64,000 nucleotides of DNA, from contig OZ024744.1 of NCBI GenBank assembly GCA_964016885.1, positions 43,400,001 through 43,464,000 of the forward strand. The letters run 5' to 3'. Position 1 is the first letter of the stretch, and each line of letters starts with the position of its first letter. Source of the stretch: Eledone cirrhosa (lineage: Eukaryota). A program made the translations under genes and the position numbers. This document shows positions 1-23,760 of the stretch, one piece after another. The notes beneath the pieces were generated by a model. It did not search any database, was not told the DNA's origin, and was given only the letters and a program-made list of their open reading frames with translations.

Positions 1-160
1 CTTTGAGAAAGTCAATAAAATGTTTATTCTGGATTATTTTATGGAGGTTGTAATAGAGAGTTTGATATTGTTGACTGAATTAAGTAGTTATAAATTTACT
101 GTTGAAAACCTAAATAAGTTACTGAATAACTTATTACATGATGTTTAAATTATAACTTAC

Positions 161-220
161 GCTTTTGAGAAGTTTCAGGCTTCATTGCAGCACTGGGAGG
201 GTACACGGTAATATGGTCAC
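161..220 (-). CDS. 60-bp phase-1 microexon (DHITVYPPSAAMKPETSQK); gene probably continues off the left edge
   Basis: TTCTAG acceptor, GTAAGT donor; identical to 1938-1997. Confidence 0.7.
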
Positions 221-371
221 CTAGAATATATAAACAACATCATAGTAAACCTACATGTATATATATAAAAAACATTACAAATAATGGAATCAGTTATTAG
301 ATTGATTATCTCTGATATATAGATATATACACCAGGTGCAAACACATATGGACCAAACTCCCACTGTCCCT

Positions 372-413
<42 letters not shown>

Positions 414-470
414 GAGAGAATGGATAAATTACTGAATAACTTATTATATGATGTTCAAATTATAACTTAC

Positions 471-530
471 CCTTTTTAGTTGATTTTGCCTCCATTGAAG
501 CAATGCGAGGGGACTGTGTAATATGGCCAC
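471..530 (-). CDS. 60-bp phase-1 microexon ([19 protein letters not shown])
   Basis: TTCTAG acceptor, GTAAGT donor; 1 nt different from 2257-2316. Confidence 0.7.
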
Positions 531-1162
531 CTAGAATATATAAACAAAATCATAGTAAACCTACATGTATATATACAAATAACATTTTAAATACAGGAAA
601 CAGTTATTAGATTCATTATCTCTGATATATACATATATACACCAGGTCCAAACATATATGGACCAAACTCCTACTGCCACTGCCATTTATATATATATAT
701 TTATATATAGTGAAAGGATTCAGGACGCCAACTACTTAGATCCGTAAATATACATTTACTACTAAATTTTCTATAATCATGGCAACAGTCCTAATAAAGC
801 AAATTTATTCTTACATACACACATACAGAGATTGCACACTCACAAACTCACACTCACACAAACACAAACAGGGCTCACACACACTCAAAAAAGCATCACC
901 GGTGAAACACACCCAAACAGGTACACATTGAATTAATATACAACCCAATATACCTATATGTATACATCAACATACACATAATACCAACATCACTTCACTT
1001 ATATATGTACACACAATTTTATTCAATGGGTCCACCTAACACATTACATAAACTTAGAATGTATACAGATATACAATATAACGTCAATTTGATATTAATG
1101 TTGAAACACGTGTAATAGTTTTCTGCACTAACTGGTAGGAATCGGTTTGAAATACAACTTAC

Positions 1163-1228
1163 TTTCTTTTGATCCACCTCTTATGTGTGTGCCTGAGTCA
1201 GAGACAAGGATCTCTACAGGAGTCACAC
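1163..1228 (-). CDS. 66-bp phase-1 microexon (VTPVEILVSDSGTHIRGGSKE)
   Basis: TTTTTTCCAG acceptor, GTAAGT donor; paralogue of 6029-6094. Confidence 0.7.
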
Positions 1229-1937
1229 CTGGAAAAAATATACAGAAGAAAAGAATAATAAAAGCTAGAAGGCTTTCTTGAGAAGAGTTTGTTGTCAAGT
1301 TGAAGAAAGGGTAGAATGAGTTGTCATTTGTTTAATCAACTAGATCAAATTATACGGTTTGTTCTCTCAAGGACATGCATAATTTTCCCACAAATCTAAA
1401 ACTTCCAAAAGGAGTAAAGTGTGGTTAGTCATATGTGGGATGTCTTGAATTATGAGAGAAACATTCTACATTATCCTAATGGTCCTTAAAATCAGATTTA
1501 TATAGTGGTTTACCAAATATTTAGGGTACTGGCAGATGTAGTGGAGAAGAGGATGCAGCATATGAACAATGAAGGGTGACAAGAAATTGTGAAGAACTGT
1601 AGGATAAAATTTTGATAAAGAAGAGAATACTGATCTCTGAAATAATCCAATCTTACTCAATGAATCTAATGTAACATTTATCTTCTCATTTGAATCACAT
1701 GTAATGTCATTCTTTCTCAGCTATCTCTGATAATGCCCTAAAAAAGTCTAGCTATACTTTTGTCATCATTACAAGGTCTTTGAGAAAGTCAATAAAATGT
1801 TTATTCTGGATTATTTTATGGAGGTTGTAATAGAGAGTTTGATATTGTTGACTGAATTAAGTAGTTATGAATTTACTGTTGAAAACCTAAATAAGTTACT
1901 GAATAACTTATTACATGATGTTTAAATTATAACTTAC

Positions 1938-1997
1938 GCTTTTGAGAAGTTTCAGGCTTCATTGCAGCACTGGGAGGGTACACGGTAATATGGTCAC
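1938..1997 (-). CDS. 60-bp phase-1 microexon (DHITVYPPSAAMKPETSQK)
   Basis: TTCTAG acceptor, GTAAGT donor. Confidence 0.7.
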
Positions 1998-2149
1998 CTA
2001 GAATATATAAACAACATCATAGTAAACCTACATGTATATATATAAAAAACATTACAAATATATGGAATCAGTTATTATATTGATTATCTCTGATATATAG
2101 ATATATACACCAGGTGCAAACACATATGGACCTAACTCCCACTGTCCCT

Positions 2150-2189
<40 letters not shown>

Positions 2190-2256
2190 TTTATATAGAG
2201 AGAGAATGGATAAATTACTGAATAACTTATTAGATGATGTTCAAACTATAACTTAC

Positions 2257-2316
2257 CCTTTTTAGTTGATTTTGCCTCCATTGAAGCAATGCGAGGGGAC
2301 TGTGTAATATGGTCAC
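2257..2316 (-). CDS. 60-bp phase-1 microexon ([19 protein letters not shown])
   Basis: TTCTAG acceptor, GTAAGT donor. Confidence 0.7.
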
Positions 2317-2548
2317 CTAGAATATATAAACAAAATCATAGTAAACCTACATGTATGTATAATACATTAGATATAATTAGTAATAAGATATATCATACCT
2401 AAACTGCTTCTATCGTCCCCGACTACGTAGTTTCGTGGCATATTATGCAAAAACATATATTTATATATATATACACATATATTTATATATAGAGAGAAAG
2501 GATAAATTACTGAATAACTTATTAGATGATGTTCAATTTATAACTTAC

Positions 2549-2602
2549 CCCTTAATTTTGGCTCCATTGAAGCAATGCGAGGGGACTGTGTAATATGGTC
2601 AC
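2549..2602 (-). CDS. 54-bp phase-1 microexon ([17 protein letters not shown]), net in-frame 6-bp deletion versus paralogues
   Basis: TTCTAG acceptor, GTAAGT donor, frame preserved. Confidence 0.7.
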
Positions 2603-2756
2603 CTAGAATATATAAACAAAATCATAGTAAACCTACATGTATATATACAAATAACATTACAAATACAGGAAACAGTTATTGGATTCATTATCTCTGAAAT
2701 ATACATATATACACCAGGTCCAAACACAAATGGACTAAATTCCCGCTGTCCCAGCC

Positions 2757-2757
<1 letters not shown>

Positions 2758-2804
<47 letters not shown>

Positions 2805-2842
2805 GTGAGTACCTCTTTCGTATCTACATTTTCCCAGCCATT

Positions 2843-2917
<75 letters not shown>

Positions 2918-3049
2918 GTGAGTACCTCTTTCATATCTACATTTTCCGCCTGTAGAGGTGTCTTTATGTGCCTGCGTATATGCGTATATTTATTGAGTAC
3001 CTATTTACTTGTATGTGTATATATTTGTTTGTATATGTGTATATGTGTA

Positions 3050-3114
<65 letters not shown>

Positions 3115-3206
3115 ATATATATGTTTGTGTGTATATGTGCTTTATGTGTGTATATTTATGTATGTATATGTATGTATATGTTTGTGTATATGTATGTATA
3201 TATATA

Positions 3207-3253
<47 letters not shown>

Positions 3254-3376
3254 GTGTGTATATATGTGTATGTATGTACGTATGTATGTGTATGTATGTA
3301 TGTATGTTTATGTATATGTATGTGTATGTGTGTATGTATGTATGTGTGTGTATATGTATATATATGTGTATATGTA

Positions 3377-3425
<49 letters not shown>

Positions 3426-3476
3426 ATATATATATATATATATGTGTATATATGTATATGTATGTATGTGTGTATA

Positions 3477-3551
<75 letters not shown>

Positions 3552-3563
3552 GTATGTGTGTGC

Positions 3564-3631
<68 letters not shown>

Positions 3632-3656
3632 GTATATGGTTGTGTGGGCAGGTGTG

Positions 3657-3689
<33 letters not shown>

Positions 3690-3748
3690 ATTTGTATGTA
3701 TATATGTATATGTGTGTGTGTATATGTATGTATATGTATGTATATGTA

Positions 3749-3787
<39 letters not shown>

Positions 3788-3814
3788 ATATATATGTATA
3801 TGTATGTGTATGTG

Positions 3815-3899
<85 letters not shown>

Positions 3900-3902
3900 A
3901 TG

Positions 3903-3941
<39 letters not shown>

Positions 3942-4074
3942 GTGTGTGTGTGTATGTGTGTATATATGTGTGTATATATATGTGTATATGTATGTGTCTG
4001 TGTATGTGTATGTGTGTATGTATGTATATATGTGTGTATGTGTGTGTATGTGTGTATATATATATATATATGTG

Positions 4075-4159
<85 letters not shown>

Positions 4160-4279
4160 GTGTGTGTATATATATATATATATATGTGCGTGAGAGAGTG
4201 TGTATATATATTTTGTGTGTGGGTGTGTGTATGTGTGTATGCGCGTGTGTGTGTATATATATATATATATATGTATATG

Positions 4280-4336
<57 letters not shown>

Positions 4337-4369
4337 GTATGTATATGTATTTGTGTGTGTATATATGCG

Positions 4370-4417
<48 letters not shown>

Positions 4418-4429
4418 ATATATATATAT

Positions 4430-4478
<49 letters not shown>

Positions 4479-4610
4479 TATATGTGTATATGTGTGTGTG
4501 TATAGATATTCATACATATGTATACTCGTGTTTGTATGTATTCGTGTGAGTGTATTTATTTGTGTATATATGTGTGTGTGTGTGTATGTATGTGTATGTG
4601 TGTGTGTATC

Positions 4611-4649
<39 letters not shown>

Positions 4650-4663
4650 GTGTGTGTGTGTGT

Positions 4664-4715
<52 letters not shown>

Positions 4716-4860
4716 GTATTATATATGTATGTATGTACGTGTGTATGTATGTGTGTGTACATGAATATATATTTATATATTTTTATATATGTGTGTGTGT
4801 TTTTATGTGTGTATATGTGTTTGTGTGTGTGTTTATGGTTGCGCGTAAGTGTGTGAGTGA
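2758..4860. repeat. ~2.1-kb compound (TA)n/(TG)n microsatellite
   Basis: Direct reading; source of the YI/VC pseudo-ORFs. Confidence 0.97.
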
Positions 4861-5507
4861 GTATGTGTTTTTTTGTTTTTTTGTTTTTTTGTTTTTTTGT
4901 TTTTTTGTGAATGTGTGTGTTGGTTTTTTGGCATATAGTTGATTAGTTTAAGAGAAGTTCGAAGATAATAGTAAGATATGCACTCAGTATTTTGAATCTG
5001 TCTGCAGAATTCTCTAGACCTTTGTCACTTAGTAGAACCTTAATGACTTTAGCTTTTAAAGAATCTCCCTTTTCTTTAATTCTATCGACCATGACTGACC
5101 CCCCACTGATTTTATAGACATCTGTTAGCTTAAGAGAAACTTATTGACAAGGAATGGTATGCCATCCGGAACCTGTTTATAGAATTCTGTCTGCCTTTGT
5201 TACTATAAAAACATAAATAAATATAAATAAAAATAAAAATAAACTATAGCTTTGTAGAATTAGCTTTTAATGAATTCCCCTTTCTATCAACCAATGACCT
5301 GCACCCATCCCACTCCCCACCCTCTCCTACCACTTGTAGAGACCTATAAATACCATATTTATTTTTTGATACCCAGATTCCTGATGATTTCTAATGAATG
5401 AAACAGTTCTAGTCCTGTAGAATCTCATCTATATTAAAACTGTTATACTCTGCTATGTATTGAGTACCTTACTTACTGTGGTTACCTCCGATTCAACCCG
5501 GAATAAC

Positions 5508-5543
<36 letters not shown>

Positions 5544-5850
5544 AGTGAAAGTATTCAGGACGCCGACTGGTTAGCTCCGTAAATATACATTTACTACTAA
5601 ATACACACGCACAGAGAGTGCACACACAGAGCCTCACAATCACACAAACACAAACAGGGCTCACACAGAACCTAACACACACCCTCAAAAACTAATGTCC
5701 GGAGAAACGCACCCGAACACGTACACAATGAACACAACATCAACATACACATAACACCAACATCACTTTCCTTATATATCTACGCCCTATTTTATTCATT
5801 AGTTCCACCATACGCATTACATAGATTTCCATGTATACAAAAATACAATA

Positions 5851-5950
5851 TAATTGTTTCTACTTTTGGCACCAGTGCATTACTGGTACTTTATTTTATC
5901 AACGCCATAAGGATGAAAGGCAAAGTTAACATCAGCGGGATTTGAAGTCA
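5851..5950 (-). mobile_element. Nin-domain SINE fragment
   Basis: Reverse complement of GCCTTTCATCCTTA-GG-GT-GATAAAATAAAGTACCAG core plus AAAGTAGAAACAATTAT tail. Confidence 0.7.
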
Positions 5951-6028
5951 ATTTGATATTAATGTTGAAACACGTGTAATAGTTTTCTGTACTAACTGGG
6001 CAGAAAATGTGTTTGAAATACAACTTAC

Positions 6029-6094
6029 TTTCTTTGGATCCACCTTTTTTAGGTGTGTCTGACTCGGAGACAAATATCACTACAGGAGTCATAC
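6029..6094 (-). CDS. 66-bp phase-1 microexon (MTPVVIFVSESDTPKKGGSKE)
   Basis: TTTTTCCAG acceptor, GTAAGT donor, open frame. Confidence 0.7.
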
Positions 6095-6324
6095 CTGGAA
6101 AAATATATACGGAAGAAAATAATAATAAAAGCTAGAAGACTTTCTTGAGAAGAGATTATTGTCAAGTTGAAGAAAGGGTAGAATAACCTGTTGTTTATTT
6201 AATCCACTAGATCCATATATACGGTTTGTTCTCTCAAGGACATGCTTACTTTTCCCACAAATCTAAAACTTACAAAAGGAGTAAAGTGTGGCTCGTCATA
6301 TGTGGGTTGTCTAGAATTATGAGA

Positions 6325-7505
6325 CATATTTTTGGTCCCCATGTTGTAGAACATGCTTGAACTTTCTATCCTCTGCTTTCTTTATTGCAAGGTACACTTG
6401 TCTCCTAGCTTCTCTCCTGGCCACTTGACAGTGTTCTCTACTTCCCCCATCCTGCCATACTTTCCAAGCCTGCTTTTTGGCCTTGATTGTCTCCTCCACC
6501 TTACTGTTCCACCACCAAGTTACTCTCCTCCTGCCAATAGGTCTCCTCCAGCCATAGATTTCATCCATCACTTTCAGCAGGTTCACTTTCGAGAATTCCC
6601 ACTGTTCCTCTATATTGCACATCTCTAATTGCTCTTCCTTATTGTCAAAGGCTTCAAGTAATAAGCTTTTAAATTTGTCACTGGCTATGGGATCCTTCAA
6701 CTTCCATATTCTTCTCCTCAAGATAGTCCTCCTCTGTCGTCGTGTACATCTATTCCTAACTATGAGGTCACTAACTACTAGGCTATGCTGAGAGGTGCAT
6801 TCTTCACGGCGGAGGGATTTAGTGTTTACAACAGACACTTTGTCACGTCTGTCTTCTAGTAAGGATATAATCTATCTGGCGGGCGTGTTCCCCTGATCTA
6901 TAGGTGATCAAGTAGTTTTCTCGTTTTTTAAAGTTTGTGTTACAGATAGTTAGGTTATTAGCGTCACAGAATTCCATGATTCTGAAGCCTTCCTCATTTC
7001 TATTTCCAAACCCATAGCCTCCATGGATTCCATCATAGCCATCACTATGTTGTCCGACGTGGCCGTTTAGATCGCCAGGAATAATTAAGTAGTCGCTGTC
7101 GGTTATTTGGGAGGTAGTGTGCATTAGCGTCTCATAGAACCTGTCCTTGTCAGGTAGATAAGATTGGGGTGCATAAGCGGATATTATTGTCACAGTAGTT
7201 CTATTTAGAACTAGTCTTATTTTAATTATTCTGTCATTCACTCTATTTACGTCAATTACCTTATCTACCTATTTTTTAGCTAACATAATTCCTACACAAC
7301 CCAGTCCGTGTTATTTCCCACTCAGAAAAGTTTATAGCATCGCTTTTTAGCCACGATGAATCTGGCAGACCCACCTCTCCACCTAGTCTCTTGAACACAA
7401 TAATCATCAACTTCTTTATGTTCAAGCCTCTCTACAACCTCATTTGAGCGACCTTTCAATGTGCCTACTTTGAAGTTGGGAGGGTGGGATGGATGGGTTG
7501 GAGGG
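6325..7505 (-). mobile_element. RTE-clade LINE fragment (APE endonuclease region), intronic
   Basis: VGTLKGR, CVQETRW, IISAYAPQ, GDLNGHVG, QIDYIL, SQHSLVV, TWWWN motifs across broken ORFs. Confidence 0.88.
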
Positions 7506-7769
7506 GCACACATTACATAAACTTCCATGTATACAAATATACAATATAATGTCAATTTGATATTAATGTTGAAACACGTGTATCTTTACTTTTGTCCTCA
7601 TTACAAGGTCTCTGAGGAAGTCAATAAAATGTTTATTCTGGATTATGTTAGGGAGTTTGTAATATAGGGTTTGATATTCTTGACTGAATTACGTAGTTAT
7701 AAATTTACTTTTGAAAACCTAAATAAGTTACTGAATAACTTAGTACATGATGTTTAAATTATAACTTAC

Positions 7770-7829
7770 TCTTTTGAGTAGTTTCAGGCTTCATTGCAAC
7801 ACTGGGAGGGGACACTGTAATATGGTCAT
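7770..7829 (-). CDS. 60-bp phase-1 microexon (DHITVSPPSVAMKPETTQK)
   Basis: TTTATATATTCTAG acceptor, GTAAGT donor, open frame. Confidence 0.7.
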
Positions 7830-7975
7830 CTAGAATATATAAACAAAATCATAGTAAACCTACATGTATATATACAAATAACATTACAAATGCAAGAAAC
7901 AGTTATTGGATTCATTATCGGACCTGGTGTATATATACATATATACACCAGGTCCAAACTCCTGCTGTCCCAGCC

Positions 7976-8018
<43 letters not shown>

Positions 8019-8042
8019 TGTATTAAACAACATAAGATAATT

Positions 8043-8116
8043 ATTTCATTTACCAAGGTTTCTCGAAGACAGACGAGACTAACTCAAACGTCAGACTTCG
8101 GTCGTCAGAATGAAAT
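8043..8116 (-). ncRNA. Type I hammerhead ribozyme-like motif, intronic and sense to the microexon gene
   Basis: ATTTCATT-CTGACGA-C-CGAAG...CTTCG-A-GAAA-CCTTGG-TA-AATGAAAT: 8-bp stem I, both core boxes, GUA site; C10.1/A11.1 non-canonical. Confidence 0.7.
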
Positions 8117-8542
8117 TTTATTTAAAAGCACTGTAGCCTACATAGAGTACTCTCTTTTCCTTTACCTTTCCTACGGAAACAATTTATATATATATACATA
8201 TATATATACAAAATCTATTCTTATATACACACGTACACAGAGGACACACAGAGAAACTCACTCACACACGCACACAGAACCTAACCCACACTCAAAAAGG
8301 CACCATCTGACAAACACACCCAAACAGGTAAACGATAAAGTTATATACAACCCCATATACCTATATGTATACATCAACGTACACATAACACCAACATCAC
8401 TTCACTTATATATGTACACACTATTTTATACATCAACTCCACCATATACATTACATAAACTTCTATGTTTACAAATATACAATTTAATGTCGATTTGATG
8501 TTAATGTTGAAACACGTGTAATAGTTTTCTGTACAGACTAAC

Positions 8543-8590
8543 TTTCGATATACCATTTGTTGGTGTGTCTGACTCAGAGACACTTATATA
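8543..8590 (-). pseudogene. Degenerate or 5'-disrupted copy of the 66-bp microexon (..SVSESDTPTNGISK)
   Basis: Homologous to 6029-6094 and its downstream intron; GTTAGT donor; normal acceptor missing, abuts a PLE fragment. Confidence 0.4.
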
Positions 8591-8599
8591 GGCCAGTTA

Positions 8600-8850
8600 A
8601 GGAAGAACAGTTAAGGAAGAATTATTAGTACAGTGGGTTTTTTTAAAGGATATGTTTTGCTGATCAGGGATTTTATGGTAGTTCCTGGCTTTTCTACCTC
8701 TTTAAGCTTTAAGTGGGTCTTTCTTAGGAACTTTCTATATTTGTTAGCTAATTTCCCCCCAGGGATAACATCTACGAACATGACATATTGCCGTAAGTTT
8801 CAATCAGGGACCAGTGAATCTTCCCCAGAGTCATTTGTGACAAAGAATAT
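8600..8850 (-). mobile_element. Penelope-like element fragment (RT-to-GIY-YIG linker)
   Basis: VMFVDVIPGGKLANKY...KEVEKPGTTIKSLISKTYP; homologous to the PLE at 13790-14212. Confidence 0.55.
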
Positions 8851-8917
8851 CTACACAATAATAGCTTTTGCAGTCTCTGTCCTACCATGTTATGATGTAA
8901 CAGACCACCAGCCATTT

Positions 8918-9008
8918 TTGCCTTTCATCCTTACGGGGCCGATAAAATAAAGTACCAGTAATACACTAGGTGATTGCTGGCCTTGTGTCAAACGTAGAAA
9001 CAATTATT
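8918..9008 (+). mobile_element. Nin-domain SINE 3' fragment
   Basis: TTGCCTTTCATCCTTACGGGGCCGATAAAATAAAGTACCAG...GTAGAAACAATTATT. Confidence 0.75.
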
Positions 9009-9626
9009 CCAATGGCAATAAAGATGGAGCGCATGGACCTGAGCAAATAAAGACCCTCGAAAACCATGATCAGACAAGGATAAGAACAATATTGAGGGGC
9101 TAACATCGGTCAGCATCACTCGTGATTTAGCCAATCTCTTTATTATATGGTTGGATATGACACTCAAAGAACGAGTAGCCAAGAACCATTTAGCCCTAAA
9201 TATGTTCTCCCATTATGTAGAGGTTATCTGTATAGTAGTATAGACATGCCGCTAAAGAAATCATCAAGGGACTAGAAATAAACGGTAAAAATCATTCAGC
9301 AAATAAATACCCCTCCATCCACTAGAGTATTAAAATAGACTGCCCAAACTACAGACTACCTGTTTTAGACACACAACTCTGTATTCTTCTTGTCGTGTCC
9401 ACAAGAGTGTCAGTTACAAAGCTTGGTTAGATGTAGTTCCGCCACAGCTGTCCTTTCTCATTAAACTCTGTCACGTCAAATGTTGTGCAGGGATGTTCCA
9501 GCAGGGGTCATATCAGGAGGTGCCACGCAGTCTCTGGTTTGATGCCGCAGTCACACACAATGTCCCTATCCTTTAAATATCCCCATTTTGCAATATTGAT
9601 ATGTATATATGTATGTATGTATGTAT

Positions 9627-12600
9627 GTTCTTCTGGTTTTATAATTTCACAATTTTTTTCCCAATAGAAAGAGAGAGTCGGTTTCTAACATAGACACAAG
9701 ACTCTCTCGTTGGAATTTACACAACATCAACTAGGTAGATATGTATGTATGTCTGCATGTATACATGTGTAGATATGTTATTGTATGTGTGGATGTGTAA
9801 GTTTCGAGTTGTATGTGTGCAAGTGTATAAGCTTTGCATCTGTACATGTGTATATGCAGTTATTAAAAGCAACATTTTTGGAATATTTTACATATTTTTA
9901 CTGTTCCATTAATGGATTGTACTTGTAATTTCCTAACTAGTTGTGGTCTTTCTGTTCCTGTGAAGCCTAGCTGCTCAAGATTTGTATTGAGGCAGTTACT
10001 AACATACCCCAGTGACCCAATAATCACAGGCATAAATCTGAAGGTGTAATCAGGGTGGAGTATCTGCAGATTTCTCATCAGTTCTGCATAAATATTCTCC
10101 TTTCCGCTAATCTTTGATATTATATTGGCATCTGCTGGGCAGCAAATTTACACTACTGTGCATGCCTTCTTCTCCCTGTCCCATATCATATTATCTGGTC
10201 TGTTATGCCTGCATTTTATTGGGGTTTTAACTGGAACATTCCACCAGTACTCTTTCATATTATGTATATGTATGTCTTCCACATTGCTGTAGCTTTTAAT
10301 GTGTTTATTATCGGTGCTATCTTTTTTACGGTTTGCATTGTACAGTGTTTTGGCCACTACATCATGCCTCATAGGTAGATAGTACTGCGATGACATCTTT
10401 CGACAGCTGCTGATGACATTGATGATATCTTCGATGTTAGTTCTGCAGAGTTTGCACTTGTTATCACATTTAGGTGTTTTGCCTGCATGCCTATCTCTTT
10501 TGTGAATCAGGTATTTCGTGTTAATTTCCTGTTCTTGGATTGCAAAAGCGTATCCTTCAAAGTGGGAGCCAATATAGCAGTTGTTGGTCCAAGATAGACT
10601 ACTTTCCTTATTTATATTATTCTCCCTCTGGAGCTTCCTGGCACCATATCCATGCATGATCTTTTGCTGATAAGTATGCAGTTTTTCATCCATGGATTCA
10701 CTGCGATACTGCTGAGCGACTTCCCTGGGTGTGAGTTTTTGATTATCACACAGGGAATATCTCTCAAGGAGTTCCTTCCCAACTCTTATGATCTTATCTG
10801 TTTCATGCAGATAGACTTTCTCGAGAAGCGGGCACCTACGCTTCGAGGTTCGTAGATGTTGTCGGAGAGATATGATGCGACATTCAAATGTTGTCTGGAC
10901 TGATGTTAGGCCTCTGCCTCCCTGCCTACGTTTCAATTAAAGGCGGTCTATGTCACTGTTGATGTGGAAGTTTCCGGTGTTGTTCAGTATTTTTCGAGTT
11001 CCAACATCAACTGCTCGGATTTCGTCTATCGTCCAATTGAGTATTCCAAACGTTGGTGTTAGGACAGGCACAGCAAACACATTGTGAGCCACTGTTTTGT
11101 TTTGCGCAGAGAGTTCCGATGACCAGATCTTTCTTAATCGGGTGTAGTATTCCCTGGTTACGCGTTCTTTATTACAGATACCATTATAGGATATGTTCTC
11201 ATCTATCCCCGGGTATATGTAGCAGTCCTCATCAGATATCGGTGAAACAGTTAGGCCATTGATGACAATGTTGCTAGATTGGGTTGTTGTTTTTCCTCGC
11301 TTTACAGTCATATATGAGCATTTATCTTGGCCAAACTCCATTCCTATATCCTTTGAGAACGTTGTAACCAGGTCAAGATTTTTCTTCATCCCATCCATGT
11401 TCTTGGCATAGAGTTTCAGATCGCCCACAAAGAAGTTATGGGTTAGGTTCGTATTTCTGTCCTCCTGTGAGCCAATGATGTATCCCTCACATTTCTTGAG
11501 CAGAAAGGACAAGGGGTTTAATGACAAGATGAACAATATCACAGAGAGACTGTCCCCCTGAAATATACCCCTGCAATATTTTATTTTATCAGTGAAAATA
11601 GAGTCCCCCCTCTCTGTCTTTAACCTTAGGATAGTAGCCCAAGAAGAAGACAGCCTCTCTATGGCTCTGACAATAATGTTTGGGACTTTAGCAAGTTGGA
11701 GGGCCTCTATCATCCAAGAGTGGGGAACAGAATCGAAAGCTTTCTTGTAGTTCAGCCAGACTGTAGTCATATTCCTCCTAAGTTGTTCACCTCCGACATC
11801 ACAGTTTTGTTGATTAGGAGTTGTTCAGCACATCCCCAAACCCTTTTCTTTCCAGCTGCTTGTTCATCTGTGATGATGTTATTATTTTCACAATGATCTT
11901 GGAGGAATAGGTTGAGGCAGGCTGTATACATCCTATACATTAGGTTCTCGCATGCAATGTGTCGGTAGTTTTTTGCCAAGTGGGTGTCTTTGTTCTTGGG
12001 GACCAGTAACGTTTGTGCTAATGTCAACCATTCTGGTATAAGTGTATCTCCCTTAAGAACTTGTTGGTAGAGGTCAGTAAGATACCTCCGATAGAATATT
12101 ATTTTTTTGTACCAGTAGCCGACAATCATGTCTCTTCCTGGTGTTTTCTTATCTTGGAGTTTTCCTATCACAGTCTCAAGTGTACCCTCACTTATTTCGT
12201 ATGTTTTTGTTGTAGTGTAGGAGCAATAGTTCTTTCGGATTTCTCTTATCCACACTGCATCTTGGTTGAAATTCTTCTTTTCACCCCGTATTTTTCTCCA
12301 AAAGGAATCTCTGTCTTTCTGGGATGGGGCCTCAGTGACACTTATTATTTTGCCCTTCATATCTCTATAGACTGAAGTTTGGTTTCGTCTGAATCTTTTA
12401 TTAAGCATTTTTCTCTCATCTACCTTTTTCAGGTATCGGCGTTTTTCGCTAACAGCTCTCAATTCTTGTTTGAGGGTGATCAGCTTATATTGGAGAGTTC
12501 TGGTTCTACTGTTACCAAACATCGTCTCTATTTTATTTTTCACTCTTTGTTGGTGAGGAGTGAGGTTTTTTTGTGTTTGTTTGCATGTAAGGAGCATTAT

Positions 12601-13728
12601 CACATGTCCTATGTTTTTTCGTAGGTCAGCACTCATTTTTTTCTAATTTAGTTATATATTATGGCATTTTTGGTGGTGTTTTGTTCTTGTTAATATCTCT
12701 GCTATCACCAAAATAATGCTTCACTGTCATTGCTAAGGCATATAAACAGGCGTTGATTTGCCAAAATGTTGGGCTTTTTATCCGTCGTAAATATTCATCC
12801 CCTATTTCGTCAATAACACGTAGTATTTCATTATTTGGTTTTTTTTTTCACCATTGTCATTTTAACCCGTTCAGCCAGAGAGATATTTATACATGAGCTA
12901 ATTTCTCTCTGGAAGATTTCGTTGAGGGAAATTTTCAATTCTTTATACTTTTGATTATCATTATCGATAGTATTTTCCACAACAGTCGAGGTAGACTCAG
13001 ATGGTATACGTGGTGTCACATTTATTCGATTATTATTATTATCGATAGTGTTTTCCCCAGCATTCGAGGTAGACTAGGATGGTACAGGCATAGTTGTTTC
13101 AAGGCGCTGTTCGACCTGGCTGCTAGGAAGTCTAGTAGCATGGCGATCTGTAGCACGTGTTGTGGATTCCATGTTTGTTGTGGGGGACTTACAATTAATA
13201 ATATTTATCTTATTTTTACGTTCAACAAACGTCGCTTGTTGACGTAATTGTTTCGCTGTGAAATAATTTAGCTCTGGGTGCATTTCGTCCCAGTGTAGCT
13301 GCATTCTATTCATATAGCCAATGGAGGGATTGTTTTTTGCCATTTTATAACAATTAAATAAATCATCATTAAGTTCGCAACTCCAAGAGAAATGCGATTT
13401 ATAATTTCGGTTTCTTCTGTAACTACAACTAAATAAAGTTTGGTTACCTTCTTTGTTTTTTGTCTTCGATACTTCCTTAATTTTCTTGTTGATGTTGTGT
13501 TCAACCATGCTGTTTGTAGCAAATCCTTGTAAAATGAATTATGTATTTAGTCGGATATCTCTACGAATTCGAATAAAAGGTGTCTTCAGAAGGGATAGTT
13601 AGAAGAATAACCAGTTATTCAACCTGGCTGTAGTTGTGGCATTACTGTCGGAGATAGTATTCATCTTAAATTTAATAAATAGTCTCCCACGCCAAAATAT
13701 GCGACTGATCGCGTTGACTGATGGAGTT
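9627..13728 (-). mobile_element. Near full-length, degenerate R4/Dong-like non-LTR retrotransposon (RT + restriction-like endonuclease)
   Basis: YKKAFDSVPH, GIFQGDSLS, FVGDLKLY, GGRGL, CKLC..SC zinc motif, RHDVVAK, NRPD; stops at 10937 and ~10148, frameshift near 11767; (TATG)n on both flanks. Confidence 0.9.
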
Positions 13729-13789
13729 ATGTAATGTATGTATGTATGTATGTATGTATGTATATCTAGGGCGGGTAAAATTCCCGAGA

Positions 13790-16700
13790 TAATTTTTATC
13801 TCTATGTTCTCTAATGTGCCTCTTTGTTCTATTTTGGCATGTTGGTGGAGTACTGATAAGTTTTTCCCATCCTAGACTTCTCGCTAGTGTTCACTTATCC
13901 TTTCTCCTATGCTCCGGGATGTTTCACCTATGTATGTTATATTCTTACACTGTCCGTCAGTACATCTTATGCTATATACTACGTTCCTAGTTTTGCGATT
14001 TGTTTGAGGACTTAGCTTGCAGACTATGCGTTTCCTATCAGCACAGGGGCATCTTTGAAATGAGTGTGTTTTGCTAATTAGGGTTTTTATGGGAATACCT
14101 GGTCTTTCAACTATCTTAATATTTGGTTTGAGCCAGTCTAGGGCCCATCTAAATATGTAAGCTAGGGGTTGTAGTGACGAACATTATACTCTGGTATTTA
14201 TTGCTATCATACTGTAGTGACCTACATTCCGCGGGCTCACATACAATCTCTGTGCGTGATTTGGCTCAGTTCAGCCAATCAGCGCCAGTAGAAGAGGATG
14301 TATCCCTACGCGCCCTGAGGAAGAAATTCCCCGCGAAGATTTGAAGAATCTCTCTCTTGTACCAGAAACTTCGAGCCAGCAACACGCATAATGTAACAGT
14401 GAGATTTGCACCCTAGCCTCGCCGGCTTAACGGCACATTCCCTTGTGTAACCTCTTTGTATCTGTAACTTCAACTATATAAATAAACAAACATTTCATCT
14501 CTAATTACTGCTGTTGAAATCGTTGTTATGTTACTCGTGTCTCAATGAAATCTATAATCCATGCTGCTGGAATTGGCGACCTGACGAAAGGAATATTGTA
14601 AATAGATGGTAAATAGATCGAGGGACCTTCCCTCACGTCTATGTCAACAAGATAACCCAACGAGGATACTATCACTTACCACACTGGCAACTAACGGCCT
14701 TCAATCATCTACCCTGTTAAAGTAACGACCACTGATTCTACCACCCTGCTAAAGTGGCGATAACATCCATAACCAATAACTGCTAAAGTGGTGACCGACG
14801 TAAGAATTTTACGCAGCCCTTCCTTTTCATTCAGTTGAACTTTTATTGCCACGTTTCCAACCTTTTCGCAACTTGCGAAAATAAAAAATATTCCTTTTAA
14901 GATTTTTGAAAAATTAGCAGTATTTCAAAAACTTTTCGCCACAAAGAAATTTCAAAATGGCTACCGACAAGTCCTGTCTTCGATCAACAAAGACAGCAGC
15001 AGCAGCGACAACATTGTTTAGCCACTGACCAAAACAGGGAACAGTGAGTGGCAGCTTCATAGCCTTACCGACGCAAACTACCACACATCGGAAATTTCAA
15101 AACGGCTTGTAACTTTACCGACGCAACCACCATACCTTCTGTCTCGTTACCACAGGGACTCGAGAATACATCTAATCCCTAACGGCATTAACAAACTTCT
15201 TTTTCAGTTTTCAGATAGAACTAGTGTCTGTACACTGGTGATGTGTGAACTATTTGACTTTGAAAAACTTTGAACTTATTGAGCAATTTCTCTGCTCCCT
15301 TAGATTGACTTTGAATTATCAGTTTGTTACCTTCACATATTTCTTTGTAGAATGCATTTGCTTGTTTTGTGCTCTTTTGCTATTTGTTTGCTCATGGTTT
15401 TTGTTCATTCACATTCTTTGCTGTTTTACATGCCTGCATATGCACACATTTTTTTTATCACACACCAACATGTTGTTCTTGGTATATGTTCTTCAAACGT
15501 AATATTCTGCGAGTCCCTTTTCACCTGGTTGAGATGCTGCCACATGCTAGCAGCTCACAGAGCTTAATCCACTGGATTCAAACAGGCACCGCAACACGAG
15601 AATTCTAATTGCAGCTGAACTCAAACAGCTTCGCATCTCGTTGCACACTGATCGTCCATGACGGCCATCCGTCTTGTTGTTTTTGCCCGACTCGCTGGGA
15701 AGGCAACAAATTGAACTGGACTTGTCAATATTTCAGCCACTTCTGTGGATTCGCCCGAATTATGGAATTTACACTGCAACCCACCTACGGATTAAACTTG
15801 CCTTTTTTTCTTTACAAAGCAACCAGCCATTTTTTCCTGGCTCCACAGCACATTCGACAATACATCTGGGGGCCATCATTTTCTCGCCAGCACTGGTAAA
15901 CTACCATAATAGCTTCGTTCACAGCTACTGGTACAACGCTTACCATTAACATTTAATGCAAGAACAGCAACTTCGCCCATGTCAGACTTTATCTGTTTTC
16001 TGGTAGGCCCTTGAGGGTCTCGTTTAAACTACAAAACAGCTAGTCATTTGACAGCGGCTCAACACGGCCCGTCGCGCCTAATTTATTTTTTGTTCTTGCA
16101 TGAATCTTTCTGCTCAATTATTTTTTCACTGATGTGCTCTTTCAGCATTTGTTCTTGCTGATTCAATAATATGTGGGTCCTTGGTTTCTTCGTTATCGAT
16201 TTTCGGCTGAAAATCTGGTTGGAGGTGATGTAGTGACCTACATTCCGCTGGCTCACATACATTCTCTGTGCGTGATTTGGCTCAGTTCAGCCAATCAGCG
16301 CCAGTAGAAGAGGATGTATCCCTACGCCCCCTGAGGAAGAAATTCCCCGCGAAGATTTGAAGAATCTCTCTCTTGAACCAGAAACTTCGAGCCAGCAACA
16401 CGCATAATGTAACAGTGAGATTTGCACCCTATCCTCGCCGGCTTAACGGCACAATGGCACATTCCCTTTTGTAACCTCTTTGTATCTGTAACTTCAACTA
16501 TATAAATAAACAAACATTTCATCTCTAATTACTGCTGTTGAAATCGTTGTTATGTTACTCGTGTCTCAATGAAATCTATAATCCATGCTGCTGGAATTGG
16601 CGACCTGACGAAAGGAATATTGTAAATAGATGGTAAATAGATCGAGGGACCTTCCCTCACGTCTATGTCAACAAGATAACCCAACGAGGATACTATCACT

Positions 16701-16900
16701 TACCACACTGGCAACTAACGACCTTCAATCATCTACCCTGTTAAAGTGGCGACTACTCTATAACCAAGAACTGCTAAAATACCATGATTTTGCCTTATTC
16801 TTAATCCTCTCTATTCTGTTCCAAAATTTGCTCCTATACATGGGGAAAGTTCCATATATATATTAATAAAAACGATGAAGATTCGTTTGCATGTATTTAG
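13790..16900 (-). mobile_element. Penelope-like element fragment (linker + GIY-YIG) split by an LTR element
   Basis: YRSKFWNRIERIKNKAKSWY (16779-16850) joins DSNKYQSIMFV..IVERPG..NVVYSIRC..TYIGETSRSIGERISEH (14212-13790) once the insert and one TSD are removed. Confidence 0.75.
14213..16778 (+). mobile_element. Non-autonomous LTR retroelement (TRIM/LARD-like), 2566 bp
   Basis: LTRs 14213-14787 and 16229-16778, 4-bp TSD ATAC (14209-14212, 16779-16782), PBS-like TGGTGACCGACGT at 14789, purine-rich GGAGGTGA before the 3' LTR, no recognisable gag/pol. Confidence 0.9.
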
Positions 16901-17687
16901 ATTTTGTATTGTGTCAGCCTGCTACGCGTCTTTCGTAGCGGATTGGGTCAGTGTCACCCATAGAAATTATGAATCCGACTCCATTATCGATCTCTCTTCT
17001 TACTGGTGATCCGACAAAAAATATAGTATATATATATATGTATGTGTGTGTGTGTGTGTGTGTGTGGAGGGAGAGAGTAAGGGAAAGATTATATTATTTA
17101 TTCAAGTGTGAGCTACATGAGCTCTGATATAGAGTTACTGTCCTTGCTTTCAAACTGTTTCCCCTTCTTTTTTCACTATGTGGGACGTTTCCCTCACCAC
17201 ATCACATTGAATGATGTTATTTAAAGAGTGACAATTTTAGTGTCTTTTAGGCATAACTGGAGCTTATTGGTCTTAACCACGGTGATACTTAGTGTCGCGG
17301 GGGTTTAACTCCTTTTCTCATTCAACGAGGGAAAATGATTCCATGTTTCGTGACATACTCCAGCGCTAAAATTGTCACTTCAGCCAATGTTTAAAATACA
17401 GCCACTCACAAGGCAGCAGAGGAACAGAAGATGTTTTTTTTTACAATCTCTCCTCACTTCTGCGACTAGCGTTTCCCTCCGTTGAGAGGAAGGGTATCAT
17501 GCCTGAGAAATAAGTCCTGAGAGATACATTGGCTTATACAGCTAATATTGCTAGTCTTCTTGTCTGTGGGCGGCGTAAAACAGACAAGTTGTTTAGAAGT
17601 TGTGTACTTATATTTTGGAGAAATAAAATTATATCTTAGTGTGTTATTTACAATTTAACAAACTGGGTTTATTATAACGTACTTTAA

Positions 17688-17900
17688 GGGCGGTGGTTGG
17701 CAGTTTGGTAGAGTGTCGGACAGCATGCTTTGTGGCATATAGTTACAGCATTTTACGTTCTGAGTTCAAAACTTACCGAGATTAGCTTTGCCTTTAACAT
17801 GTACGGGGTCGATAAAATAAACTACTAGTAATGCACTAGGGTAGATTTAATCGATTTTCCCTTCAAATTGCTGATTTGTCTGGCCAAATGTAGAAACAAT
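17688..17900 (+). mobile_element. tRNA-derived Nin-domain SINE just inside intron 1
   Basis: A-box-like TGGCAGTTTGGTAGAG, B-box-like GAGTTCAAAAC, GGGGTCGATAAAATAA core, GTAGAAACAATT tail. Confidence 0.75.
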
Positions 17901-17910
17901 TGTAACTTAC

Positions 17911-18130
17911 CAGGCTGCATATCGATTATGGCCGATTCATTAACATTCGCTGTGGCTGTTGGTAACTCCACAGACTCAGGATCGATAGATGTTATATTAA
18001 ATTGTTGCAGTTTCTGTTGCCGTCGTCGGAGTCGTTTTTCACGATAACAAGGAAATATGGACTCAGCAAGCCGTCGGGCTCTTTCAGCACATCTTGAGAG
18101 AAACTTCCGGCGCTTTTTACGCTCCGACAT
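17911..18130 (-). CDS. Putative first coding exon of an unannotated microexon-repeat gene (MSERKKRRKFLSRCAERARRLAESIFPC...IIDMQP/G)
   Basis: ATG at 18130, 73 open codons +1 nt, then CCTG|GTAAGT donor (17910-17905); phase 1 matches all downstream microexons; non-repetitive, basic N-terminus. Confidence 0.6.
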
Positions 18131-18654
18131 TATCAAACGAATAGAAGAAGAAACAACAAAAAACAAGCAAACACAAAAACAAATAAGATCAGTTCTCAAA
18201 CACTCAACCAATCAAACAAACAATCAGACAATGTAGATCAATTATCAGCAGTAATAAATTTCTGGATTGTTATACAGAAGAATATTTGTATAAAATACAA
18301 AATACACTTGTACACTTTCGAGAAAATATTTCACTAATGACAGAAAATATTGAAATAGTATGAATCTATACGTATACATACATATATACGTACACAGATA
18401 CATACATACAACATATATACATACATAAACACATACATAAATACCTACATACCTACAAACATACATACACACCTACATGCACACACACATATATGCATGT
18501 ATATATGTGTGTGTGTGTGTGTATGTATGTGTTATAACAGAATGTGAATATCTATTTAACACACAACCATGACGTCATAATTTGAAATCGAGAAAAACCG
18601 TGAAAATCTATTAAAAAATGTTAACATCATAGATTGGAACGCACGAGGCCCCGA

Positions 18655-20859: not shown

Positions 20860-21878
20860 TTATTTAAATTTTCGAGATAATATTTCGGAGGGAAGTAGAA
20901 CGGTTAAACCAGTGTTCTAAATAGCTTGCCAAGTCATGCTGACAGGAAATGGTATAGAGTATCTGTTCTATCTCTAATGTCAAAGAGTTAAGGTTAGGTG
21001 GATAAAGAGTAGTCTCCCTTTGAAAGATGTGTTTTTGTACATGCCCGTTTAAGTGTGTGGGAGAATGGATGAATGTGTAAGTATGTAAGTGTGTGTGTGT
21101 GAGTGTGAGAAGATATGTCTATACGTAAATGTGGAGGATAGATGTTATCTCGTGTTAGAACTGGTCTTTGTGTGTGTATGTGTGTGTGAGAGAGAATAAG
21201 TGGAGGTCTAAGGGTTTGTGTGTATGTGTGTGTGCGTGCGTGTGTGTGTCCGTGTGTGTGTGTGGGGTGTGTGTAAATATGGGGCTAGAAGCTCTATCAA
21301 GTTATAAATTGGGTGTTGAGTTCTAGTCTATTATAGATTGGTGGTTGTGTTTTGTCTATAATTAGTGCTTCCTTAATTCTAAGATTACTGAGGTTTCTTT
21401 CCTTAGTTTCTATCCTAACTGTTATGGTTTTGTCGGTATTTTTGCATTTAACTAGGTGTTTCTTAAATGAGGAAGCGTTAGTATTGAGGTGTTCTTTTAT
21501 TCTTATGTGGAGTGGTCTGGTGGTGCTACCTACGTAGAAGTTGCTGCATTTGTCACACTCTAGTCTGTATACGACGTAAGCCTGGTGGCATAGGTCTGTG
21601 TCGTTGATGGGGCAGTTGGCTAGCCTGCAGCAGTTGTCATGTCTGGTGGAGTGTCTTTTGGTTAGTTGTCCGCGTAGAGAAGGACCTGAGTGGCCCAGTT
21701 GGATATCTAGTCCCTCTCGTCTGATAGCTCTGCGGATGGCTGTTGTTGTTTCGTCACTGAAGTGTGGGAGCTTCAGGAAGCAAGTGTTAGTGCCTCGGGT
21801 GTGGTGTCCTCTGTTCTTTCTGGCACGGTTTGTGGTTGATGTCGTGTATCCGTTCAGTTTGAGTACTTCCAGGGAATG
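20860..21878 (-). mobile_element. Penelope-like element 3' part (family B) with GIY-YIG endonuclease
   Basis: LKLNGY...FLKLPHFSD...CRLANCP..LC..YVVYRLECDKCSNFYVGSTTRPLHIRIKEH...EALII..QP..N. Confidence 0.85.
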
Positions 21879-23760
21879 TGTTGATAGAGCCGGGTCTTAA
21901 AGTCACAAGCGGTTAATCGTATATAATCTTTGTTGGAGGTGTCCGTCCTCACGTTGCAACGGTAGATCACGTTACGTTCTCGGCGTCTGTTGTTGAGGGG
22001 GCACGTAGATCTATCAGGGCAGTTACACCTCCTGGCCGGCTCTCCACTAATGTCTAGGTTGTTTCTTCCATATTAGTTGATTTTTTCGTCGTTTGAGGAG
22101 ACTATGTTTTGTGCGAAGTTAGGTGTGGTGCTGTAGGAGAGCTTGATAGTGTTTTTGTTGATTATATTGTGGTAGTGGTGTTGTAGTGGGAAGTATTTTT
22201 CGAGGACCCTAAAGAAGATTTTCCCGATAAGTGTTGCTACCTCGGTATTATGGGGAGGATTGAACCACGTTACGTGGCGTGAGCGGAGCGTCGCCTGCTG
22301 GTTCCCCTAAGGGAAGCTGGTTAAAAAGATATTTCCTCCCGGAAGCCACTCCGCTTGAGGGCCTGGTTGTAATGAGGCGCATGTTCGTCGAATATCTGCT
22401 CATTAGCGGACAAACGAGATATGAAGAGGGAGATGTTTTTAACCAGGTTATTGGTGATGTTTCTAGGATGTTTAGTGCGGCGGTGGATGTAGTGCAGGTT
22501 GTCGTTTGGTTTCCTATAAGGGTAGTACAGATCAGTTTCGAGGTTGAGGGTAACGTCCAAGAAATTGTCTCGGGTTAGGGACGTTTGTATGGTGATTTTG
22601 AATCCCAGTCCCGGAAGAAGTTGATTAGTTGTTTATGGACCCGGTCTGTACTACTGGGGTTGTACCCTTTGAGGGTTAGGAGCCCATCGTCTCGGTACAA
22701 TCCACCGCCAAATTCAGGAAACATTTCGGTGAGTTTAAATAGTAGGAATAATCCTATAAGATCGGTCACCTCGGCCGAATCGGTCGCGCCCATACATACG
22801 TCGAAACGGGGAGTCGGGAGCTCTCTTTATCGATTTGGAGTTGTCGAAAAGTAGGACTGTCTTCCTGGCGTGGAGAATGATATTTCTTTCCTGGTTGGTG
22901 ATGGGTGTGAGTGTTTTGGCAAAGTCCAAGGCGGCCGTAAGGAGCGCTAAGGTAATAGATGCATAGTAACTCTCTATGTCAAACTGGATGAATTTTGTAT
23001 CCCGTTTGTACTCAATATTCCTGAACCATGAGATTACTTCCTGGGTGCTGACCCATAGGCCAAGTGTCGCGTTTTGCTTAAATTTTGGTATAAAGCAGTC
23101 TAGGATCTTTTCACTGATTCTCTCTATATCCGACTTCGTCGGGTTTAAAAGCCTGATGGCTGGTTTGCTGTCGAAGTTGGATTTGTGGTCCTTCAGTGTG
23201 AAGTAGGTAGTCTGTGGGTCGAGCGGTTCAGTGCGGTTTGCGACCCCGAGGCTGGAGGTAATTTGTTGTCCATCTAGATTTGTGTACTCGATAATTGAAC
23301 GGTTAGCCTTTTTATGGGTAGAGTTTAGGCTGCTCCTGATCAGTCTGTTATATCTGTCCGGGTTGACGAAATAAAGGTTTCAAGTTTTGTCCGAGTGCAC
23401 TAGGATGTCATTGGCGCTTCCATACTCCGTTATTTTGCTACGGAACTGTTGTAGGAATCTGTTGTGTCTGGGTTTGAATTTAATACCCTTGACCAGTTGG
23501 AAAAGGTCGTTCTCGATGGGTGAGAGCATAGGGTTAGGTGGGGAAGATTTGTAGGTATTGAATCCGAATCTCTCCTTGGTGTCGAAGTCCTGGTTGTCGC
23601 GGTATCTATCGTAGAAAAATGTTCTCCATCTTAGTCTTTTCGTAAAAAGATCGAATTTTTTGCTTGAGCATCCGAAGGTAAAGTTTTCTCGGTGGAATTG
23701 GAATGTTCTTGGTGGAGAAGTCGATAATGTGTTTTCGCATGGTGTGGGTAAAGAAACTTG
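21879..23760 (-). mobile_element. Penelope-like element (family A, tentatively Naiad/Chlamys-type): RT and start of GIY-YIG, degenerate
   Basis: DFSTKNIPIP, FIQFDIESYYASIT, SAEVTDLIGL, GLYRDDGL, LDVTLNL, WFNPP, CNCPDR..CPLNN. Confidence 0.88.

Follow-up and report, generated by a model that had tools for sequence, protein, structure and literature searches.

Primate DAZ is a Y-linked ampliconic family in which a 72 bp exon (24 aa) is repeated in 8-24 copies, with a head under purifying selection and exon repeats that evolve neutrally. Sex-linked ampliconic families in mammals are mostly testis-expressed. NBPF genes are segmentally duplicated and carry tandem higher-order exon units (Olduvai triplets) encoding a disordered repeat. 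Titin has 364 exons; its PEVK region consists of about 100 short ones that encode a disordered repeat, with a repetitive subregion that evolves in length. Schistosome MEGs encode secreted proteins no longer than 189 residues from 10-20 exons, mostly of 15 nt (range 6-81 nt). PMC3632108 sets out a general rule by which disordered proteins arise from symmetric exons duplicated in tandem.

We analysed a 64-kb window of the Eledone cirrhosa genome (the whole stretch of DNA under study), in which the original prediction had placed eight stop-free, phase 1-1 segments on the minus strand behind a 220-nt ATG exon. All eight segments were verified in the 18-kb end of the window, each with an AG acceptor, a GTAAGT donor, a length of 54, 60 or 66 nt and an open frame in phase 1-1. 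Exon 1, coding from the ATG to a phase-1 donor, was likewise verified at 17911..18130 on the minus strand (220 nt, 73 codons). The palindrome TGACGTCA, a candidate promoter element that we take to be a CRE-type motif, lies 440 nt upstream of the ATG at 18570..18577. Intron 1 holds a degenerate remnant of a 66-nt-type exon without an acceptor (8544..8604, minus strand), followed on the same strand by repeat exon 1 of 285 (7770..7829, 60 nt, phase 1-1), exon 2 (6029..6094, 66 nt) and exon 3 (2549..2602, 54 nt), the last of a type common to five genes of the locus's subfamily. Three exon types then recur: C in exon 4 (2257..2316, 60 nt), A in exon 5 (1938..1997, 60 nt), B in exon 6 (1163..1228, 66 nt), C in exon 7 (471..530, 60 nt) and A in exon 8 (161..220, 60 nt). 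The first complete 1.78-kb A-B-C exon-plus-intron unit spans 221..1997 (minus strand), and the unit is repeated about 88 times in the array. Within 1-18200 the same search rule returned 8 segments on the minus strand and none on the plus strand, and it found 0 on either strand of the rest of the window; 200 Markov resamples gave a mean of 0.02 segments and a maximum of 1. The acceptors, predicted to be pyrimidine-rich, are indeed T-rich but are interrupted by A's (67-80% pyrimidine), and the label "microexon" had to be dropped, since segments of 54-66 nt exceed the usual upper limits of 27 or 51 nt.

The expectation that the exons run past the window edge was borne out. Extension to the left gave 285 exon copies in total over 224 kb, down to C28:43,195,489, about 35 times more than first seen, and the array ends in a conserved candidate last exon that begins at C28:43,194,172. 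The 90 B-type exons showed a median spacing of 1,786 nt, and 67 of the 86 units compared were distinct (median divergence 1.6%), which makes an assembly artefact unlikely. Intact copies numbered 278 of 285; of the others, three are altered in length (one of 61 nt, two of 58 nt), one is interrupted by a stop and three have a dead splice site (one donor, two acceptors). An in-frame 6 bp is therefore the sole exonic length change inside the window, as had been claimed, but not farther left, where the 61-nt and 58-nt copies lie. The reading frame shifts in repeat exons 46, 58 and 64, and the stop lies in exon 274; with all splice-competent copies used, the frame ends at 1,019 residues, so these four frame-breaking exons must be skipped for a longer product. 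The first frameshift, in the 61-nt copy at C28:43,377,530, consists of one extra base within a run of A's, which may reflect an assembly error. The final two repeat copies have lost acceptors that are kept in the paralogue at C28:34.1 Mb. All intact repeat exons are symmetric and the introns measure at least 231 nt, so every skip would stay in frame. In three sequencing runs from one sample, contigs read through from exon 1 into the intron and extend over intronic repeats, with no splice joint among the 15 of 686 joints listed; these runs thus behave as genomic DNA and carry no evidence on expression.

The genome contains 17 copies of exon 1, of which 15 are open and 2 broken, and TGACGTCA lies upstream of 16 of them, being missing at the frameshifted copy. 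For each of the 16 chromosome-placed copies, a last-exon match lies on the same strand at 51-224 kb downstream; the last-exon acceptor is invariant in 18/18 aligned copies, and the last exon contributes just 2-22 residues. The family layout comprises a basic first exon, tandem 60- and 66-base phase 1-1 exons arranged in 2- or 3-exon units built from two exon types, and a short last exon. Full read-outs for 11 of the 17 genes gave arrays of 285, 36, 133, 27, 43, 62, 82, 42, 112, 2 and 83 copies, with predicted proteins of 540 to about 5,800 residues across the family. In nine genes, 774 of 822 copies are intact; loss of a splice site affects 38, a frameshift 6 and a stop 4. Five genes combine an open exon 1 with zero frame-breaking repeat copies. 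Exon length and frame are preserved despite a median nucleotide divergence of 23-30%, and six copies on C28 are 97-100% identical over exon 1 and upstream DNA.

Homologue searches used exon 1 as the query, the repeat peptides of 17-21 aa being too short for this, and so covered relatives that share the head rather than the repeats alone. No homologue of exon 1 was found among longer proteins (with the single sequence or the alignment) or near-length proteins, and three low-identity matches were rejected as unrelated, highly repetitive proteins. Exon 1 matched no Pfam family, including RRM, Ig and Fn3, gave no usable match in the ESM Atlas and only weak matches in the PDB (E at least 0.007); Rfam returned no match. 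These empty searches, together with the array read-out, support the prediction that the gene is lineage-specific, begins with a basic N-terminus and has gained its S/P/T/K-rich tail as symmetric phase-1 exons duplicated in tandem. Two candidate comparisons were set aside: an ANKRD36 analogy, for which no supporting paper was found, and the Zmast lncRNA, mismatched by description alone (18 kb, one or two exons).

Ten of the 16 placed exon-1 copies lie on C28 and six on an autosome, in a chromosome-18 cluster. C28 is out of size order among the chromosomes and carries Amnionless, eIF5, DDOST and SMARCB1, which are Z genes in octopuses and represent 4 of the 6 coleoid Z-chromosome genes tested. 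The Z marker PRPS was not found on C28, its best match being on an unplaced scaffold and a weaker one on C27. SPAG9, also a Z marker, was not found there either; its matches fell on an unplaced scaffold and on C1, the latter presumably RILP-like. Synteny with the octopus markers thus indicates that C28 is likely the Z chromosome. In the open-access papers searched, no amplified, fast-changing gene family on the cephalopod Z was found described.

Stops do not occur in the exon copies at the neutral rate that the original prediction had named as evidence against it. With each distinct nonsense change scored once, 3 were observed against 15.7 expected (P = 6e-4 after scaling); the other counts were 3 against 23.8 and 0 against 9.7 on trees. 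The five control frames showed 92 nonsense changes against 105.6 expected, and this confinement of stop depletion to the coding frame argues against a non-coding array. The dN/dS comparison proposed among exon copies gave a divided result: amino-acid change was neutral (missense/silent ratio 1.14-1.22, no difference from 1), with no significant positive selection, whereas both stops and splice-dinucleotide changes (18 observed, about 56 expected) were depleted. Because repeat evolution avoids stop codons, the repeats likely encode protein, and on this evolutionary evidence the family is very probably protein-coding. We infer that selection maintains the open frame and the Ser/Thr/Pro/Lys/Glu make-up rather than the residue sequence. 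That the window's copy makes some protein appears probable.

Exon 1 behaved differently from the repeats. Its dN/dS of 0.43 (P = 0.004, six multi-hit codons excluded, signal confined to codons 1-42) demonstrates, at the level of sequence comparison, purifying selection, although silent divergence between subfamilies (19-25%, against 2-5% in the flanks) reveals an unusual silent baseline that may bias the ratio low. Positive selection, raised by the greater divergence of the exon than of its flanks, was dismissed on finding more divergence at silent than at replacement sites, and CpG decay accounted for 0/8, 0/11 and 0/9 of the silent changes and was rejected as the source of the excess. Residues 1-42 include 17 Lys/Arg and two Cys, and hydropathy, with a maximum of 0.72 over 19 residues, indicated no hydrophobic stretch and no N-terminal signal peptide. 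Such an Arg/Lys-rich, Cys-bearing head would likely bind nucleic acid or chromatin, or membrane via an acylated Cys.

Compared with the described systems, the family resembles DAZ in being a multi-copy sex-chromosome family with a copy-variable short exon, a constrained head and neutral repeats; it differs in lacking an RRM or sequence similarity (no DAZL/BOULE homology was found for exon 1), in its location on a likely Z, and in having 17 copies whose arrays reach 285 exons, made of two exon types grouped in twos or threes. It shares with sex-linked ampliconic families its multiple copies, an identity of at least 97% reached by the six C28 copies, and the placement of most mapped copies on the chromosome identified by synteny as the likely Z. 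With NBPF it shares duplicated members with tandem exon units encoding a disordered repeat, but an Olduvai domain of about 65 aa arises there from a small-plus-large exon doublet, whereas here each repeat comes from a single symmetric exon; moreover, exon 1 has no Pfam match, the repeat peptides being too short to scan. Titin PEVK is similar in composition, in having one repeat per exon and in evolving in length rather than sequence; PEVK lies inside one conserved multidomain gene, whereas in this young family the array makes up almost the entire protein, and neither exon 1 nor the last exon (the recognised exons) supplies Ig/Fn3 flanks. The family fits the rule in PMC3632108 and differs from it in scale, family-wide repetition and Z linkage. 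The predicted likeness to schistosome MEGs extends to short multiple-of-three exons within the 6-81 nt range; the exons are far above the 15-nt mode and are tandem near-identical copies. This analogy was therefore abandoned: signal peptide and hydrophobic stretch are absent by hydropathy, and just three sequences account for 186 of the 278 intact copies, so that skipping would alter length far more than sequence.

We favour, at a probability of roughly 55%, the reading that these loci, about 17 in all with ten on the likely Z, encode very long, disordered, DAZ-like proteins predicted to serve the male germ line as anchored spacers or scaffolds. The germ-line step draws on analogy and one promoter motif, and we put expression there at even odds. 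The leading alternative, itself unlikely, is a somatic one, in which exon skipping would tune an elastic spacer of muscle or nerve resembling titin PEVK or a neurofilament tail. Composition and the one-repeat-per-exon layout (as in PEVK) and the six autosomal copies suit it, but the domain-free exon 1 does not, the few residues of the last exon add no second anchor, and a young 17-copy family with pseudogenes would be unlike conserved structural genes. Also unlikely is that the family is coding while the window's copy decays, its 1.78-kb unit having spread as a satellite, with nonsense-mediated decay or a product of about 1,000 residues as the outcome. The four frame-breaking exons, the earliest at 46 of 285, the two lost final acceptors and the very young units are consistent with decay; the 278 intact copies and the intact exon 1, TGACGTCA motif and last exon are not, and the possible assembly error at the earliest frameshift also weakens it.

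A MEG-like generator of many different protein sequences by combinatorial skipping seems improbable. Frame-neutral skips and the persistence of splice-dead copies (38/822) would allow it, yet MEGs are secreted and small, the sequences here are largely shared, and so marked a depletion of stops suggests routine inclusion of most copies. Least credible is a non-coding macrosatellite with exon-like signals inherited from a dead gene: it would explain repeats neutral at the amino-acid level and an exon 1 without homologues, but it conflicts with the frame-specific stop depletion, the conserved splice sites, the pairing of first and last exons at 16/16 placed loci and an exon 1 dN/dS below 1.

Under the favoured germ-line spacer or scaffold, a constrained head would carry a tail whose variable length stems from exons duplicated in tandem; this tail would be a disordered spacer open to phosphorylation, having 2-6 Ser/Thr-Pro sites in every 100 residues. 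Complete exon-plus-intron units would be copied by unequal crossing-over or gene conversion, so that each gene homogenises its own unit. The symmetric phase would make gain, loss or splice-site death of an exon frame-neutral, and with frame and composition selected rather than sequence, protein length would become the variable trait. More tentatively, this may be a young ampliconic family on the ancient cephalopod Z, encoding giant disordered germ-line proteins of about 500 to 5,800 residues whose length is set per gene by satellite-like exon expansion and whose heads diverge against gene conversion; such a Z-linked, DAZ-like family might be shaped by sperm competition or by conflict between the Z and autosomes, in which the chromosome-18 cluster could be the opposing party.

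In mammals, work on sperm competition and meiotic drive gives a central place to sex-linked gene families that are amplified and change fast, and the Eledone family provides a concrete candidate with sequence-defined copies for the cephalopod Z. It also offers an unusually clean natural experiment on a disordered repeat in which selection sees frame and splice sites, not residues. The 285 internal exons, derived from one unit by recent expansion, approach the 364 reported for titin, and genes of this kind would probably pass for satellite DNA in ordinary annotation.

The original prediction of eight short segments (161-7829, minus strand) and a 220-nt ATG exon (17911-18130, minus strand) was confirmed at these positions; the segments use AG as acceptor and GTAAGT as donor, and their phase 1-1 frames are open. 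The same exon rule gave no match on the opposite strand or in the remaining window, and a mean of 0.02 matches in resampled sequence (200 resamples). The acceptors, described as pyrimidine-rich, had the AG and a pyrimidine share of 67-80%. The sizes of 54-66 bp also held, but they lie above the usual limits for microexons. Elsewhere in the window, we observed a GIY-YIG ORF at 21300-21896 (minus strand), which we take to be probably of Penelope-type origin. LINE-type ORFs with endonuclease and reverse-transcriptase matches, together with a zinc-knuckle ORF (45600-48548, 52806-54617 and 49725-50570, minus strand), apparently represent two tandem copies of one element. The window also holds an inverted repeat (28089-28743) whose 289-nt arms are 99% complementary and enclose a loop of 77 nt, a run of about 345 TTC units (56849-57880) and minisatellites of 70-nt (17 copies, 60027-61221) and 27-nt units (27 copies, 34069-34785).

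The window corresponds to positions 43,400,001-43,464,000 of contig C28. To its left, 400 kb were read, and exon copies were counted at a profile score > 60. The gene carried 285 repeat-exon copies, excluding a weaker exon-like remnant in intron 1: 278 intact, three frameshifted, one with a stop, one without a donor and two without an acceptor. The majority lie in a three-exon unit of 1.78 kb, with exon lengths of 60, 66 and 60 nt, and copies that have diverged further flank them. As 67 of 86 compared units differed (median divergence 1.6%), the array is of recent origin and no simple echo of the assembly. A candidate last exon, encoding two residues and a stop, lies at 43,194,172 of the contig (C28), about 1.3 kb beyond the final repeat copy, with AATAAA about 200 nt further. 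From its ATG to the last exon, the gene covers 223,958 nt. The predicted product has 5,813 residues when all intact exons are joined, without any hydrophobic segment; with every splice-competent exon joined, the frame stops at 1,019 residues. Downstream of the gene lies a short-period satellite of about 24 kb (C28:43.158-43.182 Mb, 218-242 kb left of the window), of which the duplicate at C28:34.1 Mb has a shorter form. An isolated intron-1-like family fragment with two degenerate exons was seen near C28:43,034,500 (365 kb left of the window).

Across the genome, 17 full-length exon 1 copies were found (10 on C28, 6 on C18, 1 unplaced), of which 15 were open, one had a stop and one was frameshifted. 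For all 16 placed copies, the same strand carried a last-exon match at a distance of 51-224 kb downstream. The last-exon acceptor was identical in 18/18 aligned copies; the stop was TAA or TAG in 11, and in the other seven it was replaced by TAC, extending the frame by about 20 codons. Eleven of the 17 genes were fully read. In 10 of these, the array consists of the same two exon classes and numbers 27-285 copies; the frameshifted gene had two repeat copies left. Each of the most expanded genes had homogenised its own unit. Predicted products ranged from 540 to 5,813 residues, with tails (the repeat-exon part) of 33-35% Ser/Thr/Pro, 11-16% Lys/Arg and 11-15% Asp/Glu. Five genes combined an open exon 1 with zero frame-breaking copies. 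Three genes (C18:7.07 Mb, C18:9.38 Mb and C28:4.54 Mb) share, about 1.5 kb upstream of the last exon, an identical exon-like segment of 63 nt. This segment is divergent, has a GC donor and, as judged by eye, is open in phase 1-1; an exact-motif search did not find it in the window's subfamily. Orphan pieces were seen at C28:44.16-44.24 Mb (16 repeat exons and a last exon, with exon 1 absent from the 80 kb that were read) and C28:34.24-34.25 Mb (two exons adjoining a partial last-exon match), and a palindrome-like head-to-head pair, 37 kb apart, at C28:45.14-45.30 Mb.

To assess coding, repeat-exon changes were counted in nine genes; copies of lengths other than 60 or 66 nt, copies scoring <=60 and the gene at C28:28.8 Mb, which is decayed, were excluded. 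On trees built from 319 and 130 distinct sequences of exon plus flank, the 60-nt class showed 350 missense and 96 silent changes, with 3 nonsense changes where 23.8 were expected; the corresponding counts for the 66-nt class were 170, 48 and 0 (9.7 nonsense expected). The missense-to-silent ratios of 1.14-1.22 did not differ from 1. Tree counts are inflated by gene conversion, and for this reason a second count took each distinct change only once. In the coding frame, 3 nonsense changes were observed against 15.7 expected, compared to 92 against 105.6 in the five other frames (P = 6e-4, scaled to the control frames). Open exons served as the seed of the profile, but one stop alone does not keep a copy from being detected. 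Splice-dinucleotide changes were also depleted (18 vs about 56 expected), with no deficit at the 66-nt class donor (6 vs 5.4). Length variants that kept the frame were old and common to several genes (54 nt in five genes), and those breaking it each occurred in one or two copies. In exon 1, the single-step changes comprised 20 silent and 28 replacement ones, which gave a dN/dS of 0.43 (P = 0.004) with six multi-hit codons excluded; the constraint signal was confined to codons 1-42. Between subfamilies, its silent sites differed by 19-25% compared to 2-5% in the flanks, which are therefore converted or constrained, so this dN/dS calls for caution. Over window 17500-18400 and its paralogues, divergence between subfamilies was maximal (11-18%) in exon 1 and the preceding 110 nt and about 1-6% slightly farther, as expected for a selected site resisting gene conversion. 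The gene family is real, and it is probably protein-coding.

The sampled contigs C1-C27 descend in size from 443 to 22 Mb, followed by C28 (136 Mb) and then small scaffolds. Amnionless, eIF5, DDOST and SMARCB1 were found on C28, the eIF5 match being presumably not eIF2-beta, judging by its motifs. Amnionless is Z-linked in Octopus vulgaris (10.1101/2024.12.09.627507), and the other three appear in a published list of Z genes conserved in coleoids (PMC10925132, Table S6). This gene content and the break in size order suggest that C28 is likely the Z chromosome and the animal a coleoid cephalopod. Given its size of 136 Mb, C28 may partly be fused autosomal material. SPAG9 and PRPS1 were searched and not found on C28; their likely matches are on unplaced scaffolds. 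C28 makes up 4.6% of the 3.0-Gb genome and holds 10/16 placed family copies, although local duplicates are not independent events.

The family belongs to neither DAZ, NBPF, titin nor the schistosome micro-exon genes (MEGs), which are described as small and secreted (10.1101/2023.06.21.545858). Its closest working analogue is DAZ, a sex-linked multi-copy family with a constrained head, neutral repeats and a 72-bp exon whose copy number varies (PMC2322974, 10.1101/2024.04.02.587783). NBPF Olduvai triplets (10.1101/2021.07.06.450945) and titin PEVK (PMC6469411) similarly encode disordered repeats from tandem exon units, and symmetric exons have been linked to disorder as a general rule (PMC3632108). 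No description of this family was found among the open-access papers searched, and it is apparently undescribed so far. The kind of architecture is already known; its scale here is unusual, and it lies on the likely cephalopod Z.

A CRE-type motif lies upstream of 16/17 exon-1 copies, and in mammals this motif is tied to spermatid genes. Together with Z amplification and fast turnover with pseudogenes, it gives male germ-line expression about even odds; most ampliconic families of mammals are testis-expressed (PMC13616518). Unequal exchange would duplicate exon-plus-intron units, and the symmetric phase would make unit gain, loss or splice-site silencing harmless; splice-silenced copies numbered 38/822 compared to 10/822 breaking the frame. 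The basic, Cys-bearing head encoded by exon 1 would likely act as an anchor, with either chromatin or RNA or else a membrane as its target, and the tail as a likely disordered, phosphorylatable spacer. Since selection preserves the frame and the head, length would be the trait that varies.
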